In this document: positions 1-51,150 of the stretch, piece after piece
Layout of the letters: every line of letters starts with the position of its first letter
How positions within the stretch are numbered: the stretch's first letter is position 1
DNA from: Psammoneis japonica
Lineage: Eukaryota
Reading direction: 5' to 3'
DNA: 51,150 bases
Assembly: GCA_008632985.1 (NCBI GenBank)
Contig: QPGO01000130.1
Span: 186,001 to 237,150 of the forward strand
The notes under the pieces: model-generated
Database searches by the model: none
What the model saw: only the letters and a program-made list of their open reading frames with translations
Told to the model about the DNA's origin: nothing
Made by a program: the position numbers and the translations under genes

Positions 1-170
1 TCTGCACATGCTGTGTGCACACAAAAGTCATGTTTGTGCATCCACAAACTTGCAGCCATTGAGGTGCAGCAACATGACTTGCATGTCTGTTTGCACATGT
101 GCCATGTGTGCTCACAGATTGCACTCATGTGTCTACAGACTTGAAGCAATCAAGGTGCAGCAACATGACT
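1..170 (+). repeat. Degenerate tandem repeat, period about 91 bp
   Basis: AGGTGCAGCAACATGACT at 62-79 and 153-170. Upstream parts align with CA/TG swaps and TCCAC vs TCTAC. Confidence 0.7.
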
Positions 171-2295
171 GTGTGATGTGTCATTGAGATGCAGCCCAGC
201 CATGGTGGTGATAAAGAATCTCTAATTCCTGGGGTGCATGGGGATGGCCAATTTTGATCCTCAGATTGTTGCTCACACATGCCACATTGTGCACTTTGTC
301 AGGGGAGTGAAGTGTTCCCAAGACATCAAAAAGAGAAGAAATGGGCAAAAACCTCTGTTTTGCATGAGCAATGTGGTGGTGACTCCATGTCCATGCTGTG
401 ACTGGGCCACCAAGAGGTGTGCTGAAACATCTGACACCATGGTCTCCCTTCATTGCAAGCTTGAACAAGCCAGAAAGGTTCTTGAAAGCACACACACCCA
501 AGTGAGTGACAATCACAAGCACCATGGGGTCTGCCTTGGTGGCAGCAGAATTCTTGCAGCATGCAGACTGCAAAGAATGGGCTTGAAGGTTTTCTGGCCC
601 TGACAACCATCTTCTCCTCTACACTGGTGGTGGGGGTGACAGCAGCAAAATTGTGATGGAGCCATGATTGCACATTGGCTCACAGCAAATGGAAAACAAC
701 ATTGGCCACAAGCTTGTCCTTTAACTTGCAAAGTGAGTGGGTGAGAGGAGAAAAGCAAAAAAGGCATTGTGAGAAGAAGATGTTGAGTGCATGAGTGTTT
801 GTCTTTTTCTTCTTGTGTCACAATCTTGGTCCTCTGTTGACACAAGTGGAAGCCAGCTTCACCCCTCAGCTTGCACAGCTGAGTGCAAAATGTGGAGAAA
901 GTGGGCAACTCAAAAACTCTGCCTGCATCACCAGCTGGGGGATCAATTGCAAAAGATTTGAGCAGGGTTTGAGTCAGTGCAGCCAAGCACTGGCTTGCTC
1001 CTGGTGGTGTTCATTTTTGTCATTGTGCAGATGTTTTCTTGTGCCATTCTCCTTTTGTTGCAGTGCAGCACAGAATGAGTGCAAAAGTCACAAAACACCC
1101 TGCCAAGCTGCTGGACATTTTAGCATCTGCCAGGTGCAAGCAGTGCCACACAAGCAGAGTGGCAGGCAGTCAGCACATCTCATGCAAGTTGAGGGAAAAG
1201 TGTTTTAGAAAATGACTTTTGTTTGACTGGGCCAAAGTGGCTTGCAGAGTTGTTGCCAACACAAGCAGTCTCATGCCCCACAGTGCAAAGCTGTGCAGAT
1301 GTGCATCATGCTCAATTTCAACATTTGGGGCTTTGCCACTGGCCCACCCACCCACCCAAAATCAACTGCCCTCCAACTGCATGGCAAAGCTTTGGGCATG
1401 CTTTTCCAATGTGTGAAAACTCAAAATTCATCAATGGCAAAAATGGTGCTCATCTCTGCAATGCTTGCCTCAAAGCCATCCTGCCAACAACCCCCATCCC
1501 ATGACTGACATGCACATCCCATGGTGTTGTGACAAAAAAAACTTCTTCAGTCTGCATTGTGCACTGTCAGGTGACAAATGCAGCTGGTTGTTGCAGGTTG
1601 CATTGTGGAAATTGTGAGACTGGTTTGTCTCCATGAGAAATGGAGTTGAGTGAGCAGGGGTTGTGCAAATTCTTCTGTTGGCTCACATTTTGAATCACTT
1701 CTCTGATCCTGTTTGCACATGAAATCATGACACACACATGCACATGCTGCTTCATGTGTCAACAGCATGGGGGAGAGTTGCACATGCTGTGCTGTTCATC
1801 CTGAACATCAAGAAGAGTTGCATGCTGGATGATGGTGCAAGGACTTGCAAGTCTGTCAGGATGTGCAAGCTGCATGGTTGTTTGCTGTTGTGGTTGTGCA
1901 TTTGGTTCACTTGGCAATGCATTCTTGCAGCTGGGACTGGGAATGATCAACCCCTCAAATCTCATGCTCATTGCTGGTTGTCATGCTGGAGAGCCACTTT
2001 GCATCAACTGTGCACAACAACAGCTTGACTTGACACTCAACAAAAACACTTTTGACAACTTGTGTGTGAATGGTTTTTTTGTTCACTTGGTCTGCTTTGT
2101 TGCACTTGGGCCCACTTGGCAACTCACCCTTGCAGTGTGTGTCACAGTGTGACTTTTGCAATGTGCCCTCTCACAAATGCAGAAGTGCACACAGGAATGA
2201 GCACTGCTTGCACTGTTGCTCTGCTTGCAACTCAACAACAACTGGAGCAGCTTTTTTGTGTCATTTTTTTCAGGTTTCTGTGTGTTGCTTGGCTG

Positions 2296-2571
2296 AGCAA
2301 ACTTTTTGTTGGGTCAAACAAAAGCTGTGGCTTGAGATGGTGGCACCACGCAGCTGGGACACCACAACAGTCAGCTGTGTTGTTGCGTGTGACAACTTCA
2401 AGAATGTGAAAGCCTTCTAAACCAACAGAGCAGAGCAAAATTTTTGTTGGGTCAAACACAAGCTGTGGCTTGAGATGGTGGCACCACGCAGCTGGGACAC
2501 CACAACAGTCAGCTGTGTTGTTGCATGTGACAACATCAAGAATGTGAAAGCCTTCTAAACCAACAGAGCAG
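2296..2571 (+). repeat. Near-perfect 138-bp tandem duplication
   Basis: Two copies of TTTTTGTTGGGTCAAAC...CCTTCTAAACCAACAGAGCAG with only a few differences. Confidence 0.95.
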
Positions 2572-3919
2572 TTGTTGTAAAAAAGCATGGCTGCATCATT
2601 CAGTGGTGAATCCATGTTGAAAACTGGACACAAAGGTTGCATTGAACCACACACTTGCATGCAGCAGTGATGGCACATGAGGGAGAGTTGCACAGGCAGT
2701 GCGCTGCATCATGTCATTGTGGCACAGTGGGTGCCATGGCAGCAACAGTCCATCTGGAGGTCAACATTCTGACTTGCTCACTGCTCCACTCTTGAGCACA
2801 TTGCACTGATGGCAAATGGGGTGGAAAAATGGGGAGCTTGTGACGTGGCACATTTGAGCTCCCAAAATGCCAAATTTCCAGTAAAAACTTGACAAGCAAC
2901 ACCTGTCTTTGCAATTTGCTGACAATTTTGGCCTCAAATTGATGGTTGGAAAACAGATGTGCTTAATTTTTCTTGCAGGAGAGTTTCCACAGGAATTTGT
3001 GCAGAATGAAATCATGCTTGTTTCATGGCTGAAATTCGCCCCTGAGCAGGGGCCTCTGCTCAAACATTTGGCCATGTGAATTGTGCTGAGGGGCAAATTC
3101 TGAAAAAGGAGTTGGGCATGCTTGTGTGTTCTTTTTGTCATGTTAGATAGATTGTCAGCATTTGGTGAACATCAACTTTCGCAATGCCCACATCTGAAAA
3201 TCAGGTTGCTTTTCCAATTGTCTCTTGTTTTGCAAAAGCTGTTTGTGAGGGATGTGGCAACAACAGACACTGCAGTGGCACAAGAAGTCCTGCTGGACTG
3301 CTTTTTAGAGTTCTTCCTTTCCTTCTCATGCTCAGCAACAGTTGATTCTCTCTTTCACTTCTGGCAAACTGCTTGCCTTTTGATTTGCTGTTTTTGGGCT
3401 GGCACTGCTTTTTGTGGCTCTTTTTCTTTGGCGTCATGGTTGTCTCATGAAAGATGAGGGAGAAGTGACTTCAAACAGTGCTCCTCTGTTGTTGGGCACA
3501 TTGGCAGCAGCTTGCAAAGACGATGAAATGGTTTGACAGTGTGCAGAGTTGTCGTGGTGCAGGGGGGTTCTTGGAAATGGACAGCTTGTTGACTTCATTT
3601 TTGGCATGCCAGCAGGAACTTGGTGCGACAATGCTGCGCACGCAATTTTAAGTGGGACAACACTGAAGCGGCAGTTGTCCATCAGCTCATTCAAAAATTT
3701 GCACAATGCCAATGGCACTTTCACGATGATGATGCGGTGGTGGTGTCAGCACTTTCCCACAGCCATGCCACAGCACATCTTTCTTGATGTGACAACATGA
3801 TTAAGGAGAATGGCCAGTTTTGTGCAAACCACAGGAGCTTTGTTCATGCATGAATCACACACGGTTGGCTTGTCAACTTGTGCTTGCAGCCATGTTTCTG
3901 TGGATGTGCAAATGGTGCG

Positions 3920-4530
3920 CGGTGCCTTTGTGCTGCTGACACTTGCAGCGGTTGGAGCCTTTGCATCACTGCCACTTGTGGTGGTTGGGAGCCTTTGCAC
4001 TGCTGCAGAAGGATAGTTGGAGCATTTGTGCTGCTGCAGAAGGACAGCTTGGACTCTTTGCACTGTTTCAGAAATGACAGTTGGAGCCTTGGCACTGTTG
4101 CCACCTGTGGTGGTTGGAGTCTTTGCATTGCTGCCTCTTGTGGTGGTTGGGAGCCTTTACACTGCTGCAGAAGGACAGTTGGAGCCTTTGTGCTGCTGCT
4201 GCAGAAGAACAGTTGGGGCCTTTGTGCCACTTCAGAAAGGACAGTTGAGCATTGACACTGTTGCCACCTGTGGTGGTTGAAGTCTTTGCATTGCTGCCTC
4301 TTGTGGTGGTTGGGAGCCTTTGTGCTGTTGCAGAAGGATGGTCGGAGCCTTCGTGTTGCTGCAGAAGGACATTTAGATCCTTTGCACTGCTTCAGAAAGG
4401 ACGGTTGGAGCCTTTGCACCACTGCCTTGCCAGTGATGAGTGGGAGCCTTTGTGCTGCTGAAAAAGGATGGTCGCAGCCTTTGTGCTGCTTCACAAGGAC
4501 AGTTGGACCATTTGTGCTGCTTCAGAAAAG
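3920..4530 (+). repeat. Degenerate minisatellite (GTTGGAGCCTTTG.../CTGCAGAAGGA units), possibly a decayed ankyrin-like repeat gene
   Basis: Many imperfect copies of (G)TTGG(G)AGCCTTTG(C/T) and GCAGAAGGA. One frame reads AAEGHLDPLHCFRKDGWSL. Confidence 0.7.
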
Positions 4531-5469
4531 ATGGTCAGGCAATGACAGCGCCGCTGCCGGTGGCAACACTTGTCATGAACCAGAAGCTGCAATCAAATGA
4601 CAACCATTGAAAATGATGATGAAAATTGAATGAGTGGGTTTTGCATGCAAGCCAGAATGTTGGCACATTGTCACATGTGGAAGTGATGCTGCAGTCAACA
4701 TTGAATTAGAAGAAACTTCAAATTGCAGCCTGCTGTTGTGCCATCACAGTTTCTCATGTGCTGGTTTGATGGATCTTCAAGATTGCTGCATGGAGCTGCA
4801 AAGAAACAAGCAAGCAGAATCCCACACGGTTTGTGCTGGCATGCCAAAAACTGAAACTTGACAAGCTGTCCATTCCAAGAGACTGAAACATGCTGCACAC
4901 ACAAAATCTGTGTGTCACCCATGTGCTGCAAAACACCTGACAATTGTCACAATGAAAAGCAGCTAATTTCCCATGCAATTTTTCACTCAGCCTCAACAAA
5001 AGTTCAAGAAAAGTGGCACAGTTTGATTGGCATCACGCAGAACCCACGGACTTCTTAGTGCACAAGATTCTGATGACTGGCAGACCAGGAAAAATGCCAA
5101 AATCACATCATGACATCAAGGTTGACAATGGAGTTGCTCGTCTTGTCCATGCTCTTCACAAACAATGTCACAGCTCCCAACAAACATTGCTGCTGTCAAC
5201 ACAGGCATGAGAGGCATTCCCAATCACATCGGAGATGAGTCTGTGCAACATTTGCTTGACCGCCATTGGAGCAGATGTCAGATGAGCTGCAGGGGTTGTG
5301 TTGAAGATGACAAAGGCTTCACCGCACTGAAAGGAAGCAGTGTGATGAAGATGGAAAACAAATGCAAGCTGTTGGTGGCATTTGTGGAGAGGCCTGTAAA
5401 GGCTGGCTTCCAAGCACCAGCACGGCAGAGCAAGGAGCATGCTGTCACCACGAGCTCCATGCAAATCTT

Positions 5470-6700
5470 GGATTGCGAACATGATGGCTGACATCCTCAG
5501 CTTGAATGATGTGAAGAACAAGTGCCATGTGACTTTTGACAACCGAGTGGCGGATGAGTTCCAACTGCTGGACAAGAAGACTGGCAAATGAGCCACAGTG
5601 TTCAAAGTGAATGATGTTGTGCTGCACACCTTTGCACCAAGCCAGAAATTCTTTGACTGTGCAAAAGATCTCCAAGAAAGCAAGTTGCATGTCAGCATGC
5701 TGTCAAAGAAGAGGAAAAAAAGAATGGCAAGCAACAAGAAGCACAGAAGTGCATCAGGAGCTGCAGCTCCAACAGCGGAGCAGAGTTCCACAGGCTGCAC
5801 CAAGAGAGAGAGGCAACAAGCACCAAGCAAGCACTCAGACTGCACTGCACAGCTGGAACACCCCAGAGTGAGGGATTTCAAGCTGTTCCTGTGATCCAAC
5901 CAGGTGAAAAACTTGTCCATTGCATCTGAAAATGCAAACAGAATGGCGCCCATTTGGGGTTCATCAACAGATGTGCCAAAAGGCAAGACCAAGCATGCAC
6001 ATCATCCCCATGAGAGGAATGACAAATGACATCACAGCAGTTCTGCCTGAGACACATGAGAAGCAGAGATGTGGTGCAATCCTCTGCATTGATGCTGTGG
6101 AAGCATGCAGCGTCAAGCTGCTGTTTGCAATTGACAAGATGATCAAGTGTCAATTGAGTGTGAGATTGAAGTCCAAGAAGCACGTTGATGTGTGCAATGG
6201 GCTGGACATGCAGTGTGCTGGACATGGCTCTCCAACAGCACAACATGGCTCTGCTCAAGATTGACTTTGTGGAGTGTGTTCCCAAGTTCAAGGCCATGCT
6301 GGTGGAAGTCATGGACAGTGTGAACTCAGATCTGACATGTGCAAATGCAAATGACCATGTTCCAGAAGTCAAGCAGAGCATGCAGACCACCAAGGAGTGA
6401 ACTCAAGCCACTGCACACCACATGCCGCACAAGATGACACCCAAGTTGATGTGCAAGCATGCAGTGATCAAGAACACTGTCATGCCAAACATGTGCCCCA
6501 AAAAAGAGGGGATTTCTGACACTTGCAGTCCACACAGAACCTTGATTGTGACAAACACTTTCAGCTCAAGATTGGGAAATTTGCACTTTCTCACATTGAG
6601 AATGACCCGATGAAAACCACGGATGCATGTGGCATTGACAGCACATGCCTGCAGCCATGTTTTGATTTGCCCAAGGGCAGACACTGTGCCATGAACTCTT
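5470..6700 (+). mobile_element. Decayed Ty1/copia (diatom CoDi-type) pol fragment: pre-integrase and integrase region
   Basis: Fragments DILSLNDVKNKCHVTFDN, RDFKLFL*SNQVKN, LTCANANDHVPE, MPHKMTPKLM, GISDTCSPH, NLDCDKH, ENDP...IDSTCLQP match diatom copia integrase motifs, with Tyr->Cys/His changes, stops and frameshifts. Confidence 0.75.
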
Positions 6701-7576
6701 CTAATTTGCTTTTCTTCATTCAATTCTTGCAACTAAAACATGGAGCAAATGTGCAGGACAGCAAGGACCATCACTTTTGCAGAGTTCACCAGCTCCGCAT
6801 TCAACCTGTCGTTTGATCCAGAGCCTCTCCTTGACGATCCTCGCGTCTCGCTTTCAAATTCAGTGCATCCCATTCCTGACAAGGCACCAACAACAGAAGC
6901 CAGTCTTCTAGCCTCTGAAGCTGCCAGTGCTTCAGAAGCACATTGGCAGCCAATTGACACATTGGCCCAGTCCTTCTACTTCCATGCCCACCTTGTGGCC
7001 CTTGCAGCTTGTTGCAGCATTTAGTCTGCAGCCAACTCCTGTTAACGCATTTTTCTGTTTTAAGACCAAGCTTTGCAAGTGTCGCAACTACATCCACTCA
7101 AATTTGGCCGGATTGCCTTCCTGCAAAAAAGGCATCGCACACACAGTCGGCAAAGGCCACTTGAGAACTGCGAATCACTTTTTAACTGGTGAAGCCGCGT
7201 TGCTTCTTCCACAGAAAACGAGCCAGCCTTTCTTTGTCGCCCAACATCAGCCTCTCGTGGAAACTGGTATTAACTAAAAAGCCATTATAAAGAATGAAGG
7301 AGAGAGGAGAAGACACTATTACAATAATGCGTAATCTCCCTCTCCAAAACCCTACTGTAGGCCTAGGAATACTCAATATAACATGCAAAGTCCTCTCACG
7401 TTTCTTTGTTTTTTGTTGTTTTGAGCCCTTTTTTCAACTGCAACGGATTCAAAAAAGTGCAATTATTTCTTCAAGAATCACCATCAAATTATGCATGCCC
7501 ACCGAAACCCATGTAAAATACTCAAGATATCATGCATCAGCCACACCGTGAAACACATGCAGTATGCAGGCATGCA

Positions 7577-9469: not shown

Positions 9470-11410
9470 AGTATTCAGTTATGTACAGCCTATAAAGAAT
9501 GGAAGGGAACAGCAGCGAGGGAGGCACGGCGCCGTACGGCCGGAACACTCCCAGCTTGGGAGGTCTGTAATTGGTACGGGCACGGAAGCAACTGCAGTGG
9601 CGGTGGAGTAGAACGGGTGAAAACACAAGACGTAGGGCATTTGGTCGATGGGATAGGAGATGAAGGAGCAGGAAGAGAGGAAGCAAATTGGAGGGCGTGC
9701 ATGGAGAGGTGAAGGACCACATTGTAGCTAAAAGCTTGAAGAGCCCATTGGGAGGGAGTGGCAGTGCGACAAGTGCTGCCAAAGCGGTCGGAGGACAGGC
9801 GACACCATGCGAAGTCAGCGAATGGGAGAAGAGCAGATGGAGAGGACAAGGCACAGAGAAAGGCAGAGCAGGAAGCATTGAAGTTCCCCAAAAGTCAGAA
9901 GGAGAGGACCAGGGAGGTTTGGGTTGGGATCGGATGGAGGAAAATGTGGAGCCAAAGAGAAGACGGTGAGCAAAAAATCCAAGACCACCAAGGTGATCAA
10001 CGGTGAAAGGGAGAAGGAAGATGCCATCATTGTTGAACAAAGCAACAATGAGGGATCCATTGGCAGATGAAGTGGAGGGGGCCATGGGACTTCAGTCTCG
10101 TGCTTGTGTGGTGTGCCTCAGTTAGAATGGGGGAAGAGGGGGGGCAGGCAGACCAGGGGGGTGAGAGGGAGCTTGGGGTGCATTGACATCGACCGCAATG
10201 CAGTGGTGGTGGGAAGGAGCTGAAAGCAAAGCAGGGGGAGGGATGGAAATGCCAACACCGGCAGGGTGGAGGAGCGGATGGGTGGAGAGCAGATTCAAAG
10301 GCTCAAGATGAACATCATTGGGAGAATGACAGAGCTGAGCAAGGGGCCCCAAAGTTTGGGCTAGGATGAAGAGGGTGTCACGAAGGCTGTTGGAGAGCTT
10401 GGATTTGTTGGTGCGATGGCAAGAGAAGGTGTGGTTGCCACAGGTGCAAAGGGTGGCATGGCCACAAGGACAGGGTGCATTGACAAGGGAGGAAGGAAGG
10501 ATGGGAAGGCGGAGCTTGCATTTGACGGCAATGACGCAGGCGTCAGAAGGAAGGCGGGAGCTCTGGAAGCGTCGGGAAAAGGAATGAAGAGGGAGGCTGG
10601 CAAGCAGGGACAGCAGCAAAGGCAGAGAAACTTGCACTTTGGAGGGAGCATCAGTGAGGGTGGAAGCAACGACCTGTTGCTGGTGGTCATGGTAAAGTTG
10701 GCGGGCTGGGCCGGGAAGAGCAGCTGACTTAACTGGAGCAGCCAGGGAGGCAGGATAGAGAGGTTGTGCTAAGAGGACAGAGACAGCTGGAAACAGTGCA
10801 GAAGGGGAACAGCAAGAATGCCTGATGGCAGTTTGATGCCATGGGATGCAAAGCAAAATGAGTGGAGGAGAGACATGATGAATGATGGGATGGCAGTGGC
10901 CATTGGATTGCAGAGGCCAAGGCCACCAAGCAATGCCAGAAGGAAGGTCATGTGGTTGGGAAGAGGAGCAGCATGGGAGGCAGCATGGCAGAGAAATCAA
11001 TGAATGATGGTGAAAAGGGAGTCTTGAAAGGAAGAGGTCTCCAAAGGAAGGGATCAGAGGGATTGTCAGGGTCAAAGTTGTGACAGAAGTCAGCACCAAG
11101 AAGGTGGGCAGAGGAAGGAGTGAAGCAGTGTTTGAAAAGTTGACCTTGGGTTTGTTTGTCATGAAGGTGAGTGAGGAGCATGTCAACTTTATGAGAGAGA
11201 GTCAAGGAAATGTCGGAGAGAAAGGAGTTGGCAAAGTCTTAAGAGCCAAGAGGCTGGCAAAGGAAGTGGACACCAGAGATGAGCTTGGAGTTGTGTTTGC
11301 AGGGTTGAGACAGGAGAGAGTGGCACAGAGAGGGTTGGCTCAGGATGGGGAAAGAGCAGGGAAGGGGCAAACACCAGCAATGGAGGTGAGAATCTTGGTT
11401 TTGTCACCTT
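9470..11410 (-). mobile_element. 3' part of a CRE-like (RLE-type) non-LTR retrotransposon, decayed
   Basis: GGLGLxxP RT-thumb motif, then CPCG...G(D)HxxSC...RD...EP...(R)PA(D)V...IAVDV zinc-knuckle/RLE motifs, then LLPFTVDHLGGLG. Frameshifted. Confidence 0.65.
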
Positions 11411-14400
11411 CGTAGAAGTGTTCGTATGCACTTGTGTGTGTGCGGAGTGCATGGGCAGTCACCACAGGCCACAGACTCCAATCTCGAATGCAAACAGTCT
11501 GACATTAAAACCCAATGGTTTGGCCTGGGAAATTTTCATTCCTAATGTGAACAATCCCCCAGGGACCCAACAGCACTGCAGTTGACACAGGGTGGGTTTG
11601 GGGAATTTTAAAAGACTGAGACAACTCAACAGAGCTTGTGACACAAGACAATGATTGTCACAGCATCATCAACAACTTTCAAAGTCATTGAAAAATGACT
11701 GTTGACCATTGCAAAATTGAGTTCACTGAACATCACACACACAGCCGAAAGAATTGACAAATCCGTCTGGTCATCCTCAATCCAAATTTCGCGTGCCACA
11801 CGCACTCACCACTCTGACTCCAAGGACCAACAAACAATGATGCATTGAACCCCAAGTCCTCACCACAGGTTGCAGATTCCAATCTTGAACATGAATGGTC
11901 TGACATTAAAACCTGGTGGTTTGGCCTGGGAATTTTCGTTCCCAATGTGAACACCCCCCCCAGGGACCCGACAGTGCTGCAGTTGATGTGCCATCATGAC
12001 TCACTTGCAAAATTGCTTTAATCTGATTGCTGAACTCTACACTGCTCAAGTGAAGAGAGTGAATGATGGCAGTTGTGCCATCAACTGCGCTTGACATGGA
12101 CCGTTGTTGGCGCAAGTGGTTTGGAGTTTGCAATGGTTGCAGATTCTTGGGTCTTCTGGGTTGGGGTCTGGAATCACAAAGAAATGTTGGTGTTTGATCA
12201 TTTGCAAAGAGATGTTGACACTGAATTGTTGAACTCATTCTCTGATGCATCAGAGAAAGGCATTTGAAGACCATCTGCCAATCAGCATGATCAAGCAAAC
12301 AGGTGCTTGTGCAAGACACATTGCCACAGCTGCTCCCAAACAAATGGAGTGAGCTCTGATTTCATGAGCTTTGCATCCCAACTCATCTTTGCCTGTCACT
12401 GTTGCTGCTGCTTGCATCTAAGACAGGATGATGAAAGAGGATGGAGAGTGCAGTTTTCCATCGGCACAGATGGTGCACGCTGGGGAGTCTGGAGCAGAGC
12501 CTGGATGGGACAGCACATGACAGACCACTGCTGCCCATGTGTGGACTGGACAGAGCAGGTTGTCCCCAGTGCAAAACATTGTGATGGTGTTGCATCTCTC
12601 ATCATTCTTTTGGCATTTGAAGGTGATGAAGATGGTGTCAGCCAAGGCCAAGTCTGGATCTTTGTGCTGAAGCTTGGTGTTGTCCTGGAAGAAGCAGAGA
12701 TTCTTGAGGGTCAGAAGTTTGGTTCATTGGTTGCCTTTGGTCTTGAAGTGCTTGCAAGAGTGCATGATGAAGAACCAAGCTCCGACAGTCAGTTGGCTTG
12801 TGGCAACGTCATCACACATCATTTGGTTTTGGGACAAAGCTTGGAGGAGAGAGGCGGTGATCACTTTCTGCTGCTCCTGTTGTCCGTCTCATTGGTTTTT
12901 GCAGCCTTGACACTGGTGGAGTAAAAGGTGCGAGGTTTGTCCATCCTTGTCCAACCTTGGGTCCTTCCTGTTGCAAGACCTGAAGGTCGATGAGCCATGC
13001 CACATCATCCACGGCAACTCCAATGGTCCCTGCCACCAGTGTGTCAAATCATTCTGCTGAGAAGTGTCCTTCTTGCACAGCTGCTGTGAAGGCTCCAAGA
13101 GTGCAGTGTTGTTGGGTGATGGTGAGTTCGTTCATTGCCAAGAAACTTCTCCCAGCGGGTGAAAGAGCTGCGTCTCACTTCTTGTTGGTTTCTTCCACAC
13201 TTGCTTGTTGATGAGCATCTTTGGCGCCAAGGAGGTCAGCCAAGAAACAATTTCATTGGGCAGTGGCAAGATGCAAAAACTTTGAGGAACCTGCTTGGGT
13301 GCAACATGGCAAAGCAAACAGATGAGTGTGTCATCGGATGAGTTTCCGTCTCCGGACAGACAATCGCTGGTGACATTCTTCTTTCCAGGGAACCACTGGC
13401 TGAAGGAATTAACAGATGCAAATTGACGGGCAATCTCCATTTGCTCTGGGTCAGATTCTTTGTCAAAGTTGGATTTCTGCAGCCAGCTGGAGGCTGTGGC
13501 ACTGTCGCCTTGGGAGAGGACACATGAAAGATGAAAGTGGTGGTGGGTTTGCCTTTGATGGAGTCGATCCAGGGACATGTGACACTGGAAATGAATTCCT
13601 TGGTGTTTGGTGTGAGGCTGTGTGCCAGGTGTTGTGGGAGTTAAAATCGGAAAGCCCACCCAGCTGTGATGTTGCAGCCGCCAATGCCGTGTTCCGATGC
13701 ATCGGATCGACAGATGTGTGTTGGCTTGCGGCAAGTGACGAGGTTTGGGCTGACACCATTTTGAGCTTGTTTGAGGAAATTTGTCCAGAGTCTTGCATCT
13801 TTAATCTCTGATGGTTTTAATTTACACCATCTCCTGTTTTCCAAGTGCATCACAAGTCGATGGAGCCGACTTAGAAAATGGCGAGCGTGTGGGATGATTT
13901 GTCCCACAGATGGTTGAGCCAGCCGACAAATTGCTCGATTTCTTTGAAAAAGCATCCTCCTTTTTTGATGAGAGATTGGAGTTGGTTGGACCAAGCAACA
14001 AGTTCATGTTCTGTCAGAGAGATGCTCATGTGACGGGCGTCCAACAACCAACAGAGCACTGTCTTGAGTTCTTCAAGTCATCCTTTGGTGAAGAGTTTCT
14101 TCAAGCAGGTGAGACCATCTCATGTTGGGTGTTCTTTGGGTGAACTGGTCAGCCAATGGCATGAATCCCTGACAGTGCTGCCACTTCTTCTCGTTTGACA
14201 TTGTTGTTTGGGTCGGGTTTGACTGTGTGGCTGTGTTGTCCATGCAGACATCGACGACGCCATTGTCGTTGGATGGGATCTTGACTGTGAATTCAAGAGC
14301 TGGAGCAAATGGTGAATCATTGCTTTTACAGCAAGGAGAAGGGAGGTGGTCTTGAACTGGGTTTTGCAAAGCAGATGGGGCACCGGACTTGCATTGGAGG

Positions 14401-14860: not shown

Positions 14861-14866
14861 CCCAAA

Positions 14867-15199: not shown

Positions 15200-15314
15200 C
15201 AGTAAGTACAGTATGCGTTGCATCTACTGGTAGTTGCATGTTGCATGTTGCATTAATAACATATCACTGTCGTTGATGCCAACGCTGGAAACTGTGAAAC
15301 CACCCTAACATAAA

Positions 15315-38935: not shown

Positions 38936-41900
38936 AGCTCAAGTGTTGCCATTGCTTTGAGTTGAGTCTTTTGAATCAAAACAAAGTGAAACCTCTGATT
39001 TTGCAAAAATTGGTGATTGTTCAGCAGGATCAGGCAACATCCTGGTTGGGGACGATGACCCCAATCCATTTGGGGATGATGCATCAGATGATTTGAGTGG
39101 TGAGTCTGGTCAAGATTCTCAAGGGTGTTTCTTGGCCTCTTGAGGAGGATCAAGCAATGCTGCTGCGGCAGTTGTTCCTTGAGTTGGTGGCATTGTCAAT
39201 GACATTGCTTGGACCGGTGGTCTGTGAGGAGTTGTTGATCCACACGCTGTGGCATGCAGTCCGCATTGCCAATGTCCAACGTTGTTCCATCATTCAACAA
39301 CAATTGTGCCCCATTGTTGGAAAGGTTTGGAGTTGAAGATCAATGCTGGCAAGGATTGCAAGGTGACTCTCATCAGTTGGACCAACTCTGTTGGCAAACA
39401 CCTTTTCATGAGTGGTGTGCCTGGACTTGGTGCTTCACATCCAGAGGAGAGATCCAAGGACAGGGGCACCTCAAGAGTTGAATCTTGCAATGGATTGTGG
39501 TTTGTTGGACCTGCAAGAAGTTAAAGATCATGTTCAAGACTTGCTCACAATGGGTGACCAATGTGATCATCAGAACTTGCTGTGGTCCACAGAGTTCTTT
39601 CTTGGCTCTGTTGGTGTTGCTCCACATGGTGACATCCAAAAGTGCATCAATGGACCTGCGCATGGGCTCATCATTTGCAAGCTTGTCACTGCTGAGTTGC
39701 ATTTGTCTGCTGCATCAGCTCTCCATGCGGTGGTGGACAAACTCAAGGCTGTGAAACTCAAGGAAGAACCAGGTGAGAACATCAAAAACTGTGCTGCAAA
39801 GGCAGTTGAATTGTGCAGATGTCTGGAAGGTCATCATGAGCTTCCTGAAGATGCTGCTTCAATCCTTTGCAGTGGTCTCATGACATTGACTGTCAAGTCA
39901 TTCTGGATCAATTCATGTCTCTCTTCAATGAAGTTGACATGGATCCAACAAAACATGCTTGTGGCAGCCAATCTTGTTGTGTGTGCAAATGAGTCATGCA
40001 CCAGTTTGGTGGATCGCAAAGAATGGGCACCTTTAAATGCAGGCAAGTCTGGCTCCACTGCATTTCTAAACTGCCCTCCACTGCAGAACAACAACAGTCA
40101 AGGAGGCAACAGTGGACACATGGAAAATGCCAAGGTCATGGTGGACACAGTGGTTGTGGAGATCAAGGCAGATGAGGATGTGGTCAAGGAGGTCATTGTA
40201 ATTCTTGACAATGCTGGAACACTTGCAGTCCCAGAGACCCTCACAGGATTCCTCCAAGACATGGAGAATCTCATGCTTGAGTCTCCAATGGCATGACCAA
40301 GCATTGGTGTGGCAGGTGTGGGTGTTGGGCCACTCATGAAACTGCCAATCATTCAGCTCCAGAGGGAGGCACTGATGCAAATGGTCAGAGTGCCACTGGC
40401 ACTGCTCAAGACTGATCCAAGGGTTGCACCTTGAATGCCAATGAGTGTCATGTCTCTTGGGGCCTTTTGTGCATGGTTCTGGTGCCACTCAAGCTTCCCA
40501 AGAATGTGCTTTGACCTGGAACACATTGAATTGGATTTTTGTGGGTTGTGCTTTGGTGCACAACTTGCCAAACTGGTGGGCCAGTGGATTGTTGGTTTGC
40601 TGTTCACAAAGCACCCCATTCTCTTTAACCAACTGTTCCAGAAGGCTCAACAAACAATGTTTTGTTTGACATTCTGTCATCAATTTTTCCATGTGTTGGT
40701 GATTGCTTTGATGTTTGTTGGGGTTTGTCAAGAAGTGCTGCGGCCAAGATCTTCCAAGAAACGTCATGCGACTGTTCAAGAAATCAAATGTCTGCATGAC
40801 AAAGCACCAGACTTTGATTTTAAACAATGCTGTCCTTGTTGTGATGAGTCAACTCACAAGATCATAAACCAAGATTTGGATCTGCCTGCTTCAAATGTTG
40901 TGTCGTGCATGCTCACATGCCATTTTGTGAATGTTGATTTGTGGGAACAAGTTGATCATCTTCTGATGTCCTTTTCATCCCCTCAAGACAAGCGATTTGA
41001 GATCTCATTTGATTGTGGGGCAAGTGCAACTTCCACTTTTGACAAGGAAGATTTTGCACCTGGAACTTTCAAGCCATTTGACAACACTGAGCCACTTCCT
41101 TCTTCTTCAGATGTCAGATGTCATGTTGATGTTAAAGGTGTGGAAGTTGTTGAGTGGATGGTGTTTGATGATGCCGGATGTGAGTGATGTGTCTGCACTG
41201 AGTGCTTTTGCATTTCAACCTCTCCTGTGAAGTTGTTGAGTGTTGCTCATCATGGGCACAACAAGAATGGCAGCGGCTTGGGCTGCAGGCTCAAAAAGGA
41301 TCATGCATTCTTTCATTGGCATGATGGCAGTGCTGTTGCCATGCCTCATCATGAAACTGACAGGCTTCCCATCACAATTGGAAGGAATCCTTTTTTGGCA
41401 GTGAACCAGAAGAAATGCATCTGTGCATGCATGACAGACAAATTCAACCACAATTTGTCACAGAAGCAAAAGAGACTGTTGCGGTGGCACTTTTGCTTTG
41501 GTCATCTTGGCTTTGATCACATTGAATGGTCAGTCAGGAAAGAGTGCCTTGGACATGCTGCAAGAAATGTCAGCTCTGTCACTGTCAACAATCCCAAGTG
41601 TGCCACTTGTCAACATGGTTGAATGACTCATCATCTGACCAGGACTGTGCAAACTGAGAAGGTTCTCAGTTGGGATCAATCTCTCAAGACTGACATTCTT
41701 CATCCTGGACAAGCAGTTGCTGCAGACCAGCATGTGTCCTCCATTCAAGGTCATCTGTTTGAGTCCCACAGGAAGACCAAAAAGGCAGACAAATGTGGCG
41801 GCAGAACTGTTTTTGTTGACATTGCATCCAGCAAGGTGTCAGTTTATCCTCAGGTCATGTCCAGTGCTTTCAAAACTGTCAAGAGCAAAACAGCTTTCAT

Positions 41901-44468
41901 GAGAGAGGCTGTTTCTGCTGGAGTTTCTATTCAAGCATGTCAATCAGATGATGGCATCTTTGTGAGTGAAAAATTCCTTAAGGAAATTGAGGAAAAAGGT
42001 CAGGGTGGGAAGCTGGCTGGTGTTGGCACACTCCATCAGAATGCTGTTGTCGAGCAAGCAATTTGCACTGTTGCTGAAAGGGCAAGAACTGTGATGTTTC
42101 ACACTGCAGATTGATGGCCAGATGCAGCAGAGTTGGATTTGTGGCCCATGGCCATGAGTCATTCTGTCCACTTGTGGAACTTGACCCCACAATTGGATTT
42201 TGATGGATCATGTCCCAAAGAAGTCTTCACGGAAGTGAAAGTTTCTCACAGTTCAACCCTCACAAATTGGCAGTTTGGGGATGCCTGACCTGTGTGTTGG
42301 ATCCAACATTGCAAGATGGCAAGAAAATTCCATGTTGGAAGGCCCAAAGTTGCAGAGGACAGTTCATGGGTCACTTGTCTGTCCATGCAAGCAATGTTGG
42401 TTTAATCCAAAACCTCAAGAGCAGTTCTACATTGCCTCCATTCCATGTTGTTTGCAACAATTGGTTTGAGATGGTTCACTCGGATGATGAGCGGAGGCCA
42501 CCACGCAATTGGTTGGACCTCCTCACCACTTTGAGATGTTGTGTGGATGCCAATGATGGCTTGGCATTGCCTCCATTGTCAGATGATTGGCTCGCTGCTG
42601 AAGAATTGCACAATCAACCACATGCCAAACAGGAAGAGTCAAGGAGGCAATGACAAGCATGAGTGTTGGTGCAGATAGAACAGAGGGAGAGGATGCCTGG
42701 ATTGCCTGGGGCACCTTCTTCTTCTCAAAGATGATCCAATGCTCCTGGATGGTTGAGTGTTCCATGTTCTGATGATGCTTCACCAGATCTTCCATTGTCT
42801 CCAGATTGCATTTATGATGAAGTCGCTCCTCCAATGTTGAATCTCCTTTGGCTCCAGCTGACATGACAGAGGCTCCAGAGGGAGACTGCAGAGTTCCCAG
42901 ATCTCAAAAAGTGCCTTTGACCACCAATGATGATGACCATTTCCCAGAAGCTCCAGATGCCACAACTCTGATTCAGACATGCTCTGGAAGAATGGCTTGT
43001 TCTCCAGATTGTTGTGGCTGTGAAGGAACAAATGAACATGGTTGTGATGGGCATGCTCTCAAGGCGTGGCTTTTTTCATTTCCAACTTAACTTGTTGGTT
43101 CAAGTCTGGTTGCAGCACAGTGGCATTTGCAAAGATTCACACAATGTTTGCTGACCTCGACAGTGATGGCATCGATGCTGCACATCCACTGTCGGCACAT
43201 TTGTTGGATTCTTTTGCAAGCAAGAAGACTCGCAATCCTGATGCTCCTTCACATCATGAAGCAGTGGCAAGGCCATGTGTGGAAGAGTTCAAGAAAACCA
43301 TGCATTCTGAGATTAATGACTTGATGTGATGCAATTCATTTGCTCCAGTGCTGCTGCATGAGTTGGTGCCATCAAATGCAAATGTTTTGCCTGGTGCTTG
43401 GGCATTTAAGATCAAGAGACACCCTGATGGATGTCTCAAGAAGTTCAAGGCGCGGTTTTGCATGCAAGGGAACCATCAACAAGAAGGGGTTGATTTCTTT
43501 GAGACTCACACTCCAGTGGTCCAGCAGAGCATGGTTTGGTTGCTCGTGAGTCTGTCAAATCTGTGCAGATTGGCATCTTGTCCAGTTCATTGTGTCTTTG
43601 CTTCTGCTCAGGCAGAAGTTGAAGAGGATGTTTGTGTTGAATTACCCAAGCTCTGTGAGATGGAACATGAAGGTGACTGCATTTTAAAGCTCAACAAGAG
43701 CTCACATGGATTGCATCAAGCCACAGCTGCATGGTTCCAGCATCTGTCCAAGGGTCTGGAAGAGGTCAGATTGCACTCCAGCAAGAATGATCCATGTTTG
43801 TTCATTGGCAAAGATGTTGTTTGTTTTGTGTGTGTTGATGATTGTTTGTTCTTTGTAAAGGATCTTACAAAAATCAATTGTGTTGTGAGTGAAGTCAAGG
43901 CCAATGATTGTGAACTTGACATCAAGGACAATGCAAGAATGGTTTTCTTGGCATTGACATTGATGGGGACAATGAGGCTGGGACTGTCCATCTCACTCAA
44001 AAGGGTCTCATCAAAAAGATCATTGCTGCTGTGAACATGGAGGATTGTCATGTCAAGAAGACTCCGGCCAGCTCAGCTCCTTTGGCTGCTGATGCTGACA
44101 GATCCGAGCAAGTCAAATCATGGATCCACGCAAGTTTCATTGGCAGCATGCTCCATTTGGCTTCCAATGCAAGGCCTGATGTCCAACGTGTGGTTCACAG
44201 CTGTGCCAGGTTCAAGCACAATCTCAAGAACAGCCATGAGGAAGTGGTGAAGTGGATTGTTGGGTGTCTTCAAGGCATGAAGGATCTCTCAGGCAATGAG
44301 AGTTCCACCACCCATGAAAGAGCTTGTCAAAGAGGCTTCTTCTTTGATGAGCATCTGAAATGTTGTTCCACTCTGCCAGTTTTGAGGATGACAACAGTGC
44401 TTTGATGTTGGCAACAATGCCAAAGATGACTCCATGCACCAAGAACATCAGGGTCAAGTGTCCCTTTT

Positions 44469-44516
44469 CAAGTCTCATGTTTCAAAACCTGACAAGTCTC
44501 ATGTTTCAAAACCTGA
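44469..44516 (+). repeat. Perfect 24-bp tandem duplication in the copia RNase H region
   Basis: CAAGTCTCATGTTTCAAAACCTGA twice. Confidence 0.95.
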
Positions 44517-44853
44517 CTCTGTGATTTGCACTCAGAAGATTGCCAGTGAAGAGCAGTGGGCTGACACTTTGACAAAGGGTTTGGTGCAAGAGAAGTTTGA
44601 TTGTTTGTGGAAGAAGGTTGTGGGGTGTTGAGATGTGGTGGATTCATTCATGTGCATGTTGATTTGAGTTAAAATGCATGTGTTGCACACAAAAAATGGG
44701 GTGATGGTGATCAGGTGTGATGACTGGGGTTGTTGCATCTCTGCATGTGGTTTCATGTCATTGCATGATGGGTTGTGTTTTGGTGCAAACTTTGTTTTGA
44801 AATCTCAGTGGGACAATCTGACATCTTGAAGTCAACATCTTCTCAAGAGGGAG

Positions 44854-45256
44854 AGCAACAAGAGCTCCAGTTTCTGATCTGTGATGTGGGTTGGTGATGC
44901 ACGCGATTTTGCTGTTTTGGTGTTTGTGAGAGTTTTGGTCCTCTTTCTTTGCTTGTGGACTGTTGAGTTTTATGTGCCAATGTCTTTTGGTCCATCATTT
45001 TGGTCCACTTTTTGGTCATTGTCCAATCTACACTTTTCTCATGTGCCTGGCACCAAAATGGCATCTTTTCTCTCTTTGACTTTTTTGGTCACTTTTAGAG
45101 CTCCCTTCTCCTCTTCTCACTTCTTGTGGATTTTCATGTTCATGAGGACCAGGATCACTTCAACAGCTCTCTTAACATTGAGCAGGCTCACATGCCATTT
45201 AGGCAATTGTTGTCACCCCAGCTCATGCTGTTGTCCGGCTCATTTCCGTGACTGTG
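44854..45256 (+). repeat. 3' LTR (approximate ends)
   Basis: Immediately follows the polypurine tract and aligns with the 5' LTR. Confidence 0.9.
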
Positions 45257-46299
45257 CATGTTTGAGCAATTGCTCAGCTCAAACTCTTGGTTGGACAAAA
45301 AGCCAAGACTGGAACTCTTGGTTGTGACCATCAAATGTTGCTTGGTGTTGTGTTCTTGCTCATGTCCATTGTGATTGTGCACATGCACATGTTTGAGCAG
45401 TTTTCCCACATGGTGCTGCTTGCCTGCCTGCCTGCTGGCCTGCCTGCATCATGGCCGACCGCAAGCAAAAAACAGGTCTGTCCTCTTCCAACCAGTCTGT
45501 CCTCTTGCAAGAGCAAACTTTGTAAACCCACTCTAAGAGTGGCTTCCCATTGTTTCACATGCAAAACCCACCTGCTAAAATGGTCAGAAGGTCAACAGAG
45601 ATCTTTGTGAAAACAGCGGCATAAAAGAGTGTTGCATCATAGCACAATCAGGGGCCAATGATGGAACATCACCATTTTCTGTAAAAAATCCATGGTGTGA
45701 GAATTTACAGAGATTTTTCTGGGATCAGTTTGATCATCAATTGTCACCATTGTTGTGTGCTTTCAATGTTGTCCATTTCAAATTCAAAATTGCATCTCTG
45801 AAAGACCACCCTCTTGCTCACTGCAACCACCACATCAAGCCCTCCACAGTGTTGTGTCCTTGTTGTTCATCATGGCATCAAAGCAACTGCCTCATCTGGC
45901 CCACCACAGTGCATCCTCTTTGATTGTCGCATCAACAAAAGACTCTGATGATCAAAACAAAAGCAGCCTGCACCCATGATCTGGTTGCCTGGCAAGCTCC
46001 TTCAAAAAAAGCTACAATGAAGGTTGTCAAGACTGCAAAAGCAAAACCTGCCACATGGATTCATTCCAGGATTGGCACTCAGCCACAACTTCAAAAAGGA
46101 TGACGTGTGCAATGCACTCAAGAAATAAAAACAGGTGGCTGCCAATGCAAGTGAGTTGCACACCATGCCGGTGCTGCCACATCACAAACTCCTTCACCAG
46201 TCATCACTCCATCAACTTCTGTAAAACATGCCAAGGGAGGCAGACCCAAAAGAGCCACAGCAAAAGCAGCCACATAAAAGCAAGCAAACACCAGTGCAG

Positions 46300-46800
46300 C
46301 ACATGTGCACGCAACTGAAGACCTCCTCAGGAGACATCACGAGTCCTCAAAAAAACTTCCCCTGGGCACTCTAGACCAAATTGTTGCCCAAGCAAAACAA
46401 AAGCATTTTTTGGATGATGAAGTCACACTGTCCAAACACACAACAAACAAACAAACAAACAAACAAGCACTCCAAAATGAGTCAAACCCACAAGGTCTCC
46501 ATTCACAGTGGCTCCACTGAAACCCACACCAGTCAAGCACTTGATGGTGTTGCAGCTGTGTCAAGTCACTGTTGAAACAGAAAGAGTTTCTTGAAGCTGC
46601 CAACTTCCTCATCAAAGGATCCGAGATGGAGAAAGAAGTGGTCAAATGGAGCAGGAAAACTGTGGCTGGGGGAACCATCCAATGAAGACAATCCATTGGT
46701 CAAGCTGGGATCCAAGTGCTGCCAGGGCTTCATGAAATGGACAAGGATGAATTGGCAACAAAACAAAATTAACTTGTACAAAGGTGCCAAAAGGCAGAGG
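46300..46800 (+). mobile_element. Decayed pogo/Tc5-like transposase N-terminal (HTH) fragment
   Basis: KLPLGTLDQIVAQAKQKH, LKQKEFLEAANFLIKG, KLGSKCCQGFMK resemble CENP-B-type HTH regions of diatom pogo-like transposases (recognised by motif only). Confidence 0.45.
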
Positions 46801-47685
46801 ACAGTTTGGTTTTTTACTTGCAGCATGCATGCCTGCCTGCCTGTGACCTGTCTGCCTTGCCTGCCCACCTGAGCCCTGCCCACCTGAGCCCTGCCCCCAG
46901 TGTTCCTGTGCTCTCCACTGGCAGTGGCTCTGGCAGAGCAGCCACCAGAGCAGAGCCAGGGCCCTGCTGTGCAGCATTGCAGGCTGCAGGGCTGGGCCCT
47001 CCAGCTGCTGCCCCCTCCCCCCCCCCAGAGTGCACTTGCCCCCTCCCTGCTGCCTCAGAGGCGGGCCCTGGCATGGCTCCTGTCTCCAGGTTTTCCTGCC
47101 TCAGGAGTGGCTGTGGTTGTTGTGCTGCTGCTGGTGGTGGTTGCTGTGGCAGTTGTGCTAGATGGACGGGCATCGTGCTGGCACTTTGGGCATTTGTGGG
47201 GCACATTGTGTGTTTTTGCCCCTGGCTGCTGAGCGGCTCTTCGATTTCATTGAAAAGGCATCTGTGGCAGAAAATGAAAGGGGTGGGGTTTTCCCATGAA
47301 TGAAGCAGTGGTGGAAGGTGTCCTGTGCCTGGTGATGGCATTTAAACTGTCTCTTGGGCTTGCTGCAAGCTCTTTAGAAGAATGTTTGAAGCAGTCGATG
47401 GGCAATGAGGTATCTCATGTTTGTAACCATTCATTAGGCTTTCAATGAACTCAGGGGCAACGGATTCTTGCTATCAGGAACTACGAATTTCAACGGAAAT
47501 AATAATTTATCATGTTACAACGCTTTACTTTATTCAATAATTTTTTTCATAATATTATCTTCCGTTGGAAATTTCGAATTTTTTTGAAATCATAAGAACG
47601 GGAGAGAGAGAGCAGGTTTTTTTTCTCATCTTCCCTTCTCGCACTTGCTTGTCTTTTATGCGAGGAACGGATGAAAGAGTGCGCA

Positions 47686-49570: not shown

Positions 49571-49639
49571 CCCAAATGGACCATGGCGGTCGTCAACGTC
49601 GTGACAAAAAGAAAAAATAAAATTGTCACCATCACGATT

Positions 49640-50480
49640 CATAAGACTCAACGTGCAGTTGAGTCTCATGCTCTTTCGCATGCTCCAAATGCACAAAAGC
49701 CCGCTATCCAACCACATTCGCGACACCGTCTGCACTGTCATCGAAACACTGGAACTCCTTTGTGGAATGTGTCTCTCCCGCCAACAAGTCTGTCTCCACC
49801 CAGCTGGTCTCTTAGCTGACCACCCCCTGAACGCCCCGCCGACGTCGGCATTCAACTCACCCCTGGCTCCACCACACCTGATGCTCCATCCACTCACCAC
49901 TTCGTGGCCATCGACGTCACTGCACCACCAGCACCCCCGCCTCCTGCACCTGGTTTGCCTGTCTCTGAAAACAAGGCTCACCTCAGCAGCACACGGGACA
50001 AGCTGGTTGGTCACTCTGCACCATCCGCCCCCAACTCCGACATCATCGACGCCATCAACCAAGCCGGACTCTTCCTTCTCCCTTTCACATTCGACCACCT
50101 TGGTGGCATCGGACATCACTTTCGCACTTTCTTTTTTGGCACCTCTGCCTCAACATCCACCTCCACCCCACCCCTTCCTCCCAAACCACCCTGGACAAGT
50201 CCATCCACCCTTTCCAACTCTCAAGCATCCTTTTCTGCTTCCACCAACTCACTGCTCGCCCCCTCCAACCTCCTCGCCCGATCCAACACGGCCTGGAAAC
50301 TGCTTTCTCCTGACCATTTGGGCTCCTCTTGTCACACCGCTGCACCTCAACTTTGGGTCTCTCAAATTCTCAGCCTCAACTTTGGCTGCGCCCTCTCCCA
50401 CCATCTCTCTTCATGCCAAGACCAACTTGTTCACCATCCCACTCTCACTGACAACTCTTCATCTCGATGTGACTGTTGAT
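49640..50480 (+). mobile_element. Second CRE-like LINE 3' fragment (RLE domain), TA-depleted
   Basis: HKSPLSNHIRD, RPADVGIQL, VAIDVTAP, LLPFTFDHLGGIG. Homologous at protein level to 9470-11410. Confidence 0.65.
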
Positions 50481-50837
50481 GTCTGTTTGTGCCTCGCGAC
50501 ATCTACGACATCCGATTGTCAACATTCGATTTCTATGGCCCCAAATTTTTGCACGTACGGCCCCCAAATTGTTGAAGACATCTCAAACACTCATCGGAAA
50601 ACACTTGTTGAGACGTTCGTCTTCTCACCTTTTCGAAATTCAAAGTAATCACAATCAGTTCATCGTGTTCATCACAAGGCTAGTTGTCAACTTAGTTCTA
50701 ATTAAACCATTGGCTCACACGCTTCCTCTGCGATAAAGTGTTCTTGATCGAACCAGCAACGTTCTCTCCGAACTGACAAGATACGCCGTTTAACAAGAGG
50801 AGCACAAAGACGTGCTCAGGAACTTCAAGACCTCATT

Positions 50838-51150
50838 GTGGCGGACGCTGACGCGCTCGCTAACGCCATCGCACAAGCTGTCCAGGCGGCTGTCCAGCCG
50901 ATTGTGAACAACATGCCTGCACCACCAGCAGCAGCTGCTCCAGGACCTTTCGCCAAGTCACCCAGCGCTGGCCCGTGCAGACGTTTTGGACTACACCAAG
51001 AAAGGTGACGCGCTCGTTTTCGTAGACGCGACCAAGCCGTTGGACACCAGTTCAGTCTCGAATCGCCCAACATCCCAGTTTCCTCGAAGAACTCGCGGTC
51101 CGTTCCAAAACCAATGGTTGGAACGAAGTCCTCACGATTAACATCAACCA
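50838..51150 (+). mobile_element. Probable start of a copia gag, frameshifted, running off the window
   Basis: Ala/Pro-rich lead, then PFAKSP, DVLDYTKKG, ATKPL, LEELAVRSKTNGWNEVLTI, resembling diatom copia gag N-termini. Confidence 0.5.

Follow-up and report, generated by a model that had tools for sequence, protein, structure and literature searches.

Footprint of a probable TpA-specific hypermutation of repeats in the diatom Psammoneis japonica

Directed mutation of mobile DNA was previously known as cytosine deamination, in the form of fungal repeat-induced point mutation (RIP) and of APOBEC editing, and for an A:T-to-G:C counterpart specific for the dinucleotide TpA only one precedent exists, in the alga Bigelowiella natans, and it is unreviewed. 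In mutation-accumulation lines of B. natans, de novo TpA-to-TpG/CpA hypermutation was reported in integrated viral DNA (Mettrop et al., bioRxiv 10.64898/2026.01.13.699255). In two integrated viral regions 230 of the 231 single-nucleotide mutations were A-to-G or T-to-C, all on TpA (210 of 211 in a region of nucleocytoplasmic large DNA virus (NCLDV) origin and 20 of 20 in a virophage region), and the mutation rate there was about 1000 times that of the genome (10.64898/2026.01.13.699255). Genomic clusters depleted in TpA and enriched in CpA and TpG were also enriched in reverse-transcriptase and DDE domains, and an ADAT2-like DNA adenine deaminase was proposed by the authors of the preprint (10.64898/2026.01.13.699255). 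Here, a window of 51,150 nt from Psammoneis japonica (contig QPGO01000130.1, the whole stretch of DNA that was analyzed) was studied, in which five repeat-rich blocks have lost nearly all TpA.

The footprint in P. japonica resembled the B. natans system in its TpA-only transitions, which yield TpG or CpA depending on the strand, and in its restriction to foreign or mobile DNA. A:T-to-G:C transitions restricted to TpA were found in tyrosine columns, in the mass balance of dinucleotides and in TA/TG differences between long terminal repeats (LTRs), and they were confined to mobile DNA with genes spared (edge at 37930/37931; element remnants in blocks B, D and E). Differently, the process was caught de novo in B. 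natans, a rhizarian, and left only a historical footprint in the present host, a stramenopile; the NCLDV region keeps much TpA (Rho 0.45), whereas the diatom blocks are near saturation (0.05-0.12). The first-pass annotation, made from the letters alone, knew of no described system of this kind, a statement that no longer holds since the preprint describes the same signature (10.64898/2026.01.13.699255). No report of TpA depletion or hypermutation in diatoms was found in literature searches outside subscription journals. The footprint is best classed with this very recently described kind of hypermutation, as its second case, from a new lineage and much closer to saturation.

TpA depletion, strand use and flanking bases

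Sliding windows and segmentation on TA density were adopted to delimit the blocks (A, B, D, E and F; Table 1), and dinucleotide abundance was expressed as the observed/expected ratio (o/e). TpA o/e was 0.05-0.12 in the five blocks compared to 0.54 in the pooled gene regions between them, where CG, TG and CA were 0.99, 1.16 and 1.23. TG and CA in the blocks reached 1.4-2.0, and AA, AT and TT were roughly normal, showing that other contexts of A or T were not depleted. GC content was 0.56 in block F and 0.46-0.50 in the other blocks, compared with 0.47 in genes. The first-pass description of five blocks nearly without TA and rich in TG/CA, among genes of normal TA, was borne out, and its count by eye of about 25 TA in the first 6.8 kb came close to the 27 counted here in 76-6911 (o/e 0.06). 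The same part of block A contained 52 CG (0.14), with TG at 1.93 and CA at 1.94. In block B, taken in three pieces, TA o/e was 0.06-0.12, and block D kept 10 TA (0.05). Block E showed TA o/e of 0.05-0.10, two short stretches excepted (45051-45121, 0.21; 45491-45726, 0.36). CpG o/e was graded differently, from 0.10-0.18 in blocks A and E through 0.29-0.41 in block B to 0.70 in blocks D and F. The block edges were sharp and resolved to tens of bases; at the left edge of block E, TA occurred every 4-15 bases until 37930 and the next TA was met only past 38500.

The sum of the TA and CG deficits was compared with the excess of TG and CA, giving 560 versus 648 in block A, 136 versus 126 in block D and 738 versus 712 in block E. 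A CpG deficit of 34 in block D was too small for the excess of 126, so that TpA, with a deficit of 102, must supply it, and decay of methylated CpG alone was ruled out, as the first-pass annotation had argued. Diatom transposons are reported to be CpG-methylated, and RID-related DNMT4 genes of unknown function were described (PMC9998398). Decay driven by 5-methylcytosine was visible in the same blocks. Of nine Arg-majority columns in the recombinase domain of block B three were retained, each as AGA, and the other six read TGC, TGT, CAT, CAA, CAA and TGA; in the copia element of block E, Arg was retained in 9 of 23 columns (AGR in eight) and replaced by Cys, His, Gln or Trp in 12. CpG decay thus accompanies TpA loss yet is separate from it: Arg CGN was turned into TGN or CAN while AGR survived, the decay covers the CpG deficit only, and blocks D and F lost TpA with little loss of CpG. 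Because the same TpA floor was reached despite at least five-fold differences in CpG loss, TpA loss appeared to be fast and saturating, and apart from methylation-driven decay. The three uses of the word methylation in the main text of the B. natans preprint do not concern CpG decay.

The two products were nearly balanced, with TG:CA of 869:773 in block A, 541:444 in B, 284:275 in D and 1106:976 in E, and a runs test gave z values from -0.83 to +1.33 in these four blocks and in the copia interior. Since TG and CA were about equal and randomly interleaved, each TpA was hit on either strand independently of its neighbors. This argued against RNA editing and single-strand cDNA editing, from which one product and runs would be expected.

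Survival of TpA relative to the gene regions depended on the flanking bases. TTAA survived at 0.67, CTAA/TTAG at 0.32, GTAA/TTAC at 0.15 and all others at no more than 0.065, and ATAT was found 0 times versus 59. These counts were well fitted by a two-strand multiplicative model with independent contributions of the strands and survival set by the base 5' of T (chi2 5.8, 6 df), whereas uniform survival failed to fit (187.7, 9 df); per-strand survival was 0.09, 0.18, 0.34 and 0.83 after A, G, C and T, respectively. TTAA was thus largely spared. A term search of the main text of the B. natans preprint returned no mention of trinucleotide, tetranucleotide, context, TTAA or diatom, and relative to that text the flank rule is a new feature.

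Direction and timing of the change in element remnants

Tyr codons always contain TA, and relatives of the elements therefore give the polarity of the change. In the copia and recombinase elements combined, none of 19 Tyr-majority columns kept Tyr; 11 read Cys, 6 His and 2 Phe. These 17 Cys or His columns agree with the direction from TpA to TpG/CpA named in the first-pass annotation, and comparison with relatives supported a directional change in unrelated element families.

Sequence similarity identified the element of block E as a copia LTR retrotransposon, by its LTR pair and a match to RVT_2 above the Pfam cut-off (E 4.5e-24); gag_pre-integrase was matched under the cut-off (E 9.5e-4, 19.3 bits versus 28.4). 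With 42-148 relatives per segment, none of 11 Tyr-majority columns kept Tyr (6 Cys, all TGT; 4 His, CAC or CAT; 1 Phe), and over all aligned columns 25.5 Tyr were expected and 1 was observed. The reverse-transcriptase (RT) frame contained no Tyr against 9.3-10.0 expected. Each of thirty control relatives had 5-17 Tyr in the RT region, where the window had 0, and Cys and His in this region of the window numbered 17 and 14 compared with 5.7 and 6.5 expected. The YVDD column held Tyr in 88% of 133 relatives and TGT at 43831 in the window, and the column of the ETH motif, Tyr in 61% of 148 relatives, held the His codon CAC at 43507; both changes, YVDD to CVDD and ETY to ETH, had been picked out in the first-pass annotation. 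Tyr averaged 3.1% in 150 copia relatives. Two relatives were poor in Tyr, an RVT_2 protein with none in 381 residues (P0144) and another with 0.8% (P0130); the former may represent a further copia copy, from some assembly, that was hypermutated.

The element of block B, which occupies the minus strand between about 12000 and 14767, was collinear in tblastx with a family on 80 metagenome contigs, and by its sequence it resembles a tyrosine-recombinase element, DIRS-like or Crypton-like. The HSIR and GRWSS..F..Y boxes were kept in the 80 relatives, in which Pfam Phage_integrase was approached at 27.0 bits versus a cut-off of 27.1 (L032); a protein relative (P0275) gave E 0.022. The catalytic Tyr, present in 79 of 79 relatives, was Cys in the window (TGC at 12249-12247, minus strand), and the Arg of HSIR read Cys (TGT). 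With the TGT of the copia YVDD box, this agreed with the earlier claim that catalytic tyrosines are destroyed. The upstream frame, 875-937 aa in relatives, carried Y[LM]DD- and ADALSR-like boxes; it had no Pfam match, and a PDB sequence search with one relative (L010) was empty. The first column of its YxDD box, Tyr in 75% of 16 relatives, was TGC at 14246, so that the box read CMDN as previously noted (14246-14235, minus strand). Compared with up to 80 relatives, none of eight Tyr-majority columns kept Tyr (5 Cys, 2 His, 1 Phe), and 13.0 Tyr were expected and 0 observed.

These relatives also bore on whether the composition belongs to the families themselves, in which case intact members would be equally free of TA. 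All 80 environmental recombinase relatives were normal, with TpA o/e of 0.39-0.82 and TG/CA near 1, and together with the Tyr content of the 150 copia relatives this indicates that the depletion is not intrinsic to the families; the comparison of relatives thus ruled out family-intrinsic composition.

Block D carried a 457-codon open frame free of Tyr, whose family matched XPG_I and XPG_I_2 without reaching the Pfam cut-offs and had two hypothetical proteins as relatives (P0276 and P0277). Five Tyr common to these two proteins corresponded to four His and one Arg in the window. Block D was multi-copy, with a summed contig depth of 230-2470 versus about 55-60 in single-copy genes. NCBIfam gave no match for block D frames or relatives. 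No relative of the XPG-like family was found in IMG/VR viral contigs, a weak negative that leaves a viral origin without support. The DKGC string that the first-pass annotation had read as a mutated transposase DKGY box was present at 31190, in the frame 30791-31678; this frame had no match in Pfam or NCBIfam and no relative was found for it, so that the transposase is putative.

The timing of the change was read from the copia LTRs, as an element inserts with two identical LTRs. The aligned LTR core of 373 columns had 57 differences, 35 at TA- or CG-derived sites and 22 elsewhere; the pair differences comprised 15 CA/TG doubles, 4 TA/TG, 3 CA/CG and 2 CG/TG, and TA surviving in one LTR was mostly in TTA contexts. 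Because the two LTRs differed by TG versus CA at 15 sites, the changes post-date insertion.

Other copies were sought in Logan contigs of two public runs, X1 and X2, aligned to 28001-48000 at a likeness of at least 80%. A total of 1035 X1 contigs fitted this interval, with a summed depth in the blocks several times that of genes, and 209 of them were at least 99% like the window; such contigs drop rare variants. X2 contigs gave no cover over the element blocks and have no bearing either way. Transitions of X1 contigs against the window were even (A>G 320, G>A 348, C>T 299, T>C 347), each of the eight kinds of transversion was counted 43-69 times, and adjacent T>C and G>A pairs, that is TG-to-CA swaps, were present. 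Since G>A and C>T would strongly predominate if these copies were unmutated, the other copies appeared to be about equally mutated, each differently.

Interpretation and alternative explanations

Composition, direction of the change, post-insertion timing, use of both strands, flank dependence and independence from CpG decay were shown by the analysis, and together they make TpA-specific, post-integration hypermutation of repeats at the DNA level the probable explanation. In the proposed mechanism, the diatom host would mutate repeated or mobile DNA at TpA after integration, altering A (to TpG) or T (to CpA) by an A:T-to-G:C transition on either strand with near-equal chance per site, until about nine in ten TpA are lost. 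Loss would be fastest for TpA after A or before T, with TTAA nearly immune, and 5-methylcytosine-driven CpG decay would proceed in the same blocks independently and more slowly. Elements would be inactivated by missense, as Tyr codons become Cys or His, including those of the RT YxDD box and the recombinase catalytic site. By the genetic code, TA to TG/CA gives an in-frame stop only as TAA to TGA; because no new in-frame stop can arise, inactivation would be by missense and stops would even be removed, with which the long Tyr-free frame of block D is consistent. Analogy with B. natans suggests that a dedicated system of that kind may be responsible.

RIP was compared as the classical system, since it likewise makes dense transitions in repeated DNA with sharp edges, on both strands, and inactivates elements irreversibly. 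However, RIP changes C to T mainly at CpA, raises TpA, lowers GC and creates stops, whereas here TpA was erased, GC was unchanged and no stops can be created, which accounts for the term 'reverse RIP' in the first-pass annotation. The TpA o/e of 0.05-0.12, the excess of CA/TG and a GC content of 0.46-0.56 are not those of RIP, and the first-pass annotation was right to set it aside.

Among the alternatives, the one that survives best, although we regard it as unlikely, is a repeat-specific base modification at TpA of which the mutations would be a passive by-product, the mark serving silencing and the mutations being collateral. Candidates would be thymine oxidation of the TET/JBP type to 5-hydroxymethyl- or 5-formyluracil mispairing with G, or an adenine modification. 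Dinoflagellate DNA contains 5-hydroxymethyluracil with a preference for TpA and TpC, and 5-formyluracil is mutagenic, T to C. A mark at the palindromic TpA would give A:T-to-G:C changes on either strand without strand runs, sharp domain edges and independence from CpG decay. Yet the window offers no sign of modification, the literature searches found no TpA modification in diatoms, and loss of about nine in ten sites demands a very mutagenic mark.

Editing before integration, in which an APOBEC3-like deaminase would act on retroelement cDNA or RNA at each round of retrotransposition and copies would arrive already hypermutated, is improbable. Copia is a retroelement, the recombinase element is possibly one by its Y[LM]DD- and ADALSR-like boxes, and the edges match inserted DNA. 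ADAR hyperediting of repeat RNA and APOBEC editing of cDNA are likewise deaminase-type hypermutations of mobile elements, although they affect one RNA or cDNA strand in strand-coordinated clusters; to our knowledge ADAR is confined to animals. According to work cited in the B. natans preprint, a 5' U is favored by ADAR (10.64898/2026.01.13.699255). Editing of RNA or minus-strand cDNA would leave one product only, whereas TG and CA were interleaved and near equal here (in copia, six Tyr became Cys and four His) and the divergence of the LTRs followed insertion. In addition, the TpA-free zone exceeds the copia LTRs on both sides (37931-38537 and 45286 to about 47340), no remnant of a retroelement was recognised in block A, and the B. 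natans signature arises in resident single-copy DNA (10.64898/2026.01.13.699255).

We give similarly little credence to a generic regional bias of mutation in heterochromatin, arising for instance from error-prone repair or replication at TpA and accumulated untargeted over a long time in old, unconstrained DNA. The blocks are indeed old, with a background LTR divergence of 22/373, and unconstrained, and CpG decay is present. A clock-like process is at odds with a TpA floor that was constant while CpG o/e varied from 0.10 to 0.70, which points to fast and saturating loss, and block D retains its 457-codon open frame. Adjoining short intergenic tandem repeats keep normal TpA, and by a rough estimate the loss per TpA base was about 30 times the background change per base. 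A sequencing or assembly artefact, with modified bases miscalled or repeats mispolished, is scarcely credible: depletion occurs only in repeats, where assemblies are weakest, and the sequencing platform of the runs has no record, but miscalling would not split one dinucleotide into two random products, neither LTR-specific outcomes nor sparing of TTAA by a two-strand multiplicative rule would be expected, and independently built X1 contigs showed like TG/CA variation, with 209 of 1035 at least 99% like the window.

Several observations count against post-integration hypermutation of repeats as read here. Depletion was found in 0 of 80 environmental relatives, and the process is thus not general among carriers of the recombinase family. 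The clearly classed coding remnants are or may be retroelements, and editing before integration may have acted on them. The X1 and X2 contigs represent one sample, possibly the source of the assembly itself, and are supporting rather than independent, and at some positions, such as 43452, every aligned contig disagrees with the window. For the flank rule, the gene regions are a stand-in for the ancestral context and the counts are small (102 residual TA), and a preference for the base 5' of T is inseparable from one for the base 3' of A in the product tetranucleotides, with TG/CA derived from CpG as a confounder.

For the probable hypermutation at TpA, a possible chemistry, put forward tentatively, is conversion of T-preceded adenine to inosine by a candidate ADAT/TadA-like polynucleotide deaminase. 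A wider and more doubtful proposition is that diatoms and chlorarachniophytes share an ancient RIP-like defence by DNA adenine deamination at TpA, which would recognise integrated mobile or viral DNA, act on either strand of the duplex, quickly at A-TA-T and blocked at T-TA-A, saturate independently of methylation and inactivate by missense only, free of stops. If true, no earlier case of a natural DNA adenine 'base editor' serving immunity would be known.

Content of the window and significance

The window is intron-poor eukaryotic DNA with long single frames, including genes for an FG-GAP repeat protein, ArgJ, an AMPK beta subunit, a GNAT acetyltransferase, a Cid1-type nucleotidyltransferase and a trypsin-like protease; no deaminase is among them. 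The ArgJ frame was closest to diatom proteins, with a top match at 73% identity and matches at 64-68% to Amphora, Seminavis, Nitzschia, Epithemia, Cylindrotheca and Pseudo-nitzschia. Neither an Rfam scan nor a tRNA scan of the whole window gave a match. The features of the blocks are collected in Table 1.

Table 1. Positions of the TpA-depleted blocks and of the element remnants within them
Feature	Positions	Strand	Description
Block A	1..6911	.	TpA- and CpG-depleted repeat block with tandem repeats, without recognisable coding remnant
Block B	9760..14767	.	TpA-depleted; about 12000 to 14767, minus strand, degraded putative tyrosine-recombinase element
Tyrosine-recombinase domain remnant (putative)	12178..12663	-	HSIR and GRWSS..F..Y boxes
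CMDN box, upstream frame of recombinase element	14235..14246	-	Y[LM]DD in relatives
Block D	28402..31380	.	Multi-copy element; TpA 0.05, mild CpG loss (0.70)
XPG-I-like nuclease-family open frame (putative), 457 aa	29138..30508	+	Tyr 0.0%; XPG matches under the cut-off
Block E	38050..47274	.	TpA- and CpG-depleted; TA-free zone actually begins after 37930
Copia LTR retrotransposon, degraded	38538..45285	+	LTR pair, RVT_2, weak gag_pre-integrase
Copia LTRs	38538-38965 and 44861-45285	+	Pair 82% alike
Copia reverse-transcriptase frame	43048..44031	+	YVDD reads CVDD, TGT 43831-43833
Block F	49697..50531	.	Short, C-rich; 3 TA (o/e 0.07), CpG 0.70

Pfam was searched with 203 block frames of at least 70 aa and with read-through frames of blocks A and B. 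Only copia RVT_2 was above the cut-off, gag_pre-integrase falling below it, and the remaining matches (E 0.0006-0.009), each below the cut-off, were taken as chance; recognisable element genes were confined to blocks B, D and E. Block A gave no Pfam match above a family cut-off, read-through frames with X at stops included, and three chance-level matches (E 0.003-0.006); the frames of block F had no Pfam protein family match. Block A contained a tandem array of a 162-nt unit (about 4 copies, 61-88% alike, 3921-4535) and a duplication of 138 nt (96% alike, 2292-2571). TpA-poor frames rich in Pro, Ser, Leu and His lay on opposite strands at 9760-11459 and 49697-50531, with an inverted similarity of 59 nt (78%); the former was G-rich and the latter C-rich, a strong strand skew, and neither had a family match.

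At the left edge of block E a near-perfect palindrome of 29 nt (37977-38005) was observed, and a single-copy X1 contig stopped at 37976. Intergenic tandem repeats at 31392-31704 (about 168 nt) and 49325-49573 (about 127 nt), 80-83% alike, kept normal TpA, although they adjoin blocks D and F, which suggests that small tandem duplications are not targeted. Left of block D, 28001-28400 had normal TpA and a summed contig depth at 28079 of about 458 (X1) and 344 (X2); its copy number is far above that of genes, and a repeat spared by the process may be present here. The word attgtccaaaa occurred at 28062 and again at 28380. A sixth low-TA stretch, 21617-22311 (TpA 0.07, CG 1.03, TG 1.32, CA 1.27), falls within an open frame (21482-22393) that is acidic and repetitive; it probably reflects ordinary coding bias and was placed outside the phenomenon. 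For the genic stretch 32189-33543, X1 and X2 contigs contained a second version, present at roughly half the depth (56.6 of 117.7) and set apart by dozens of differences and two replaced segments; it has the look of a second, divergent haplotype in a diploid.

The saturated footprint in P. japonica places the process in a second major lineage. Diatoms include transformable and gene-editable model species, which makes the hunt for the enzyme practical, and the footprint constrains the chemistry, as either strand is used without strand runs and TTAA is immune. It accounts for dead elements with long open frames, by which gene callers and transposable element annotators are misled; Pfam missed most of the element remnants here. 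Dating of transposable elements from dinucleotides and the use of CpG o/e as a proxy for methylation need correction in such genomes, and a natural duplex-DNA adenine deaminase, if it exists, would be relevant to base-editing work.

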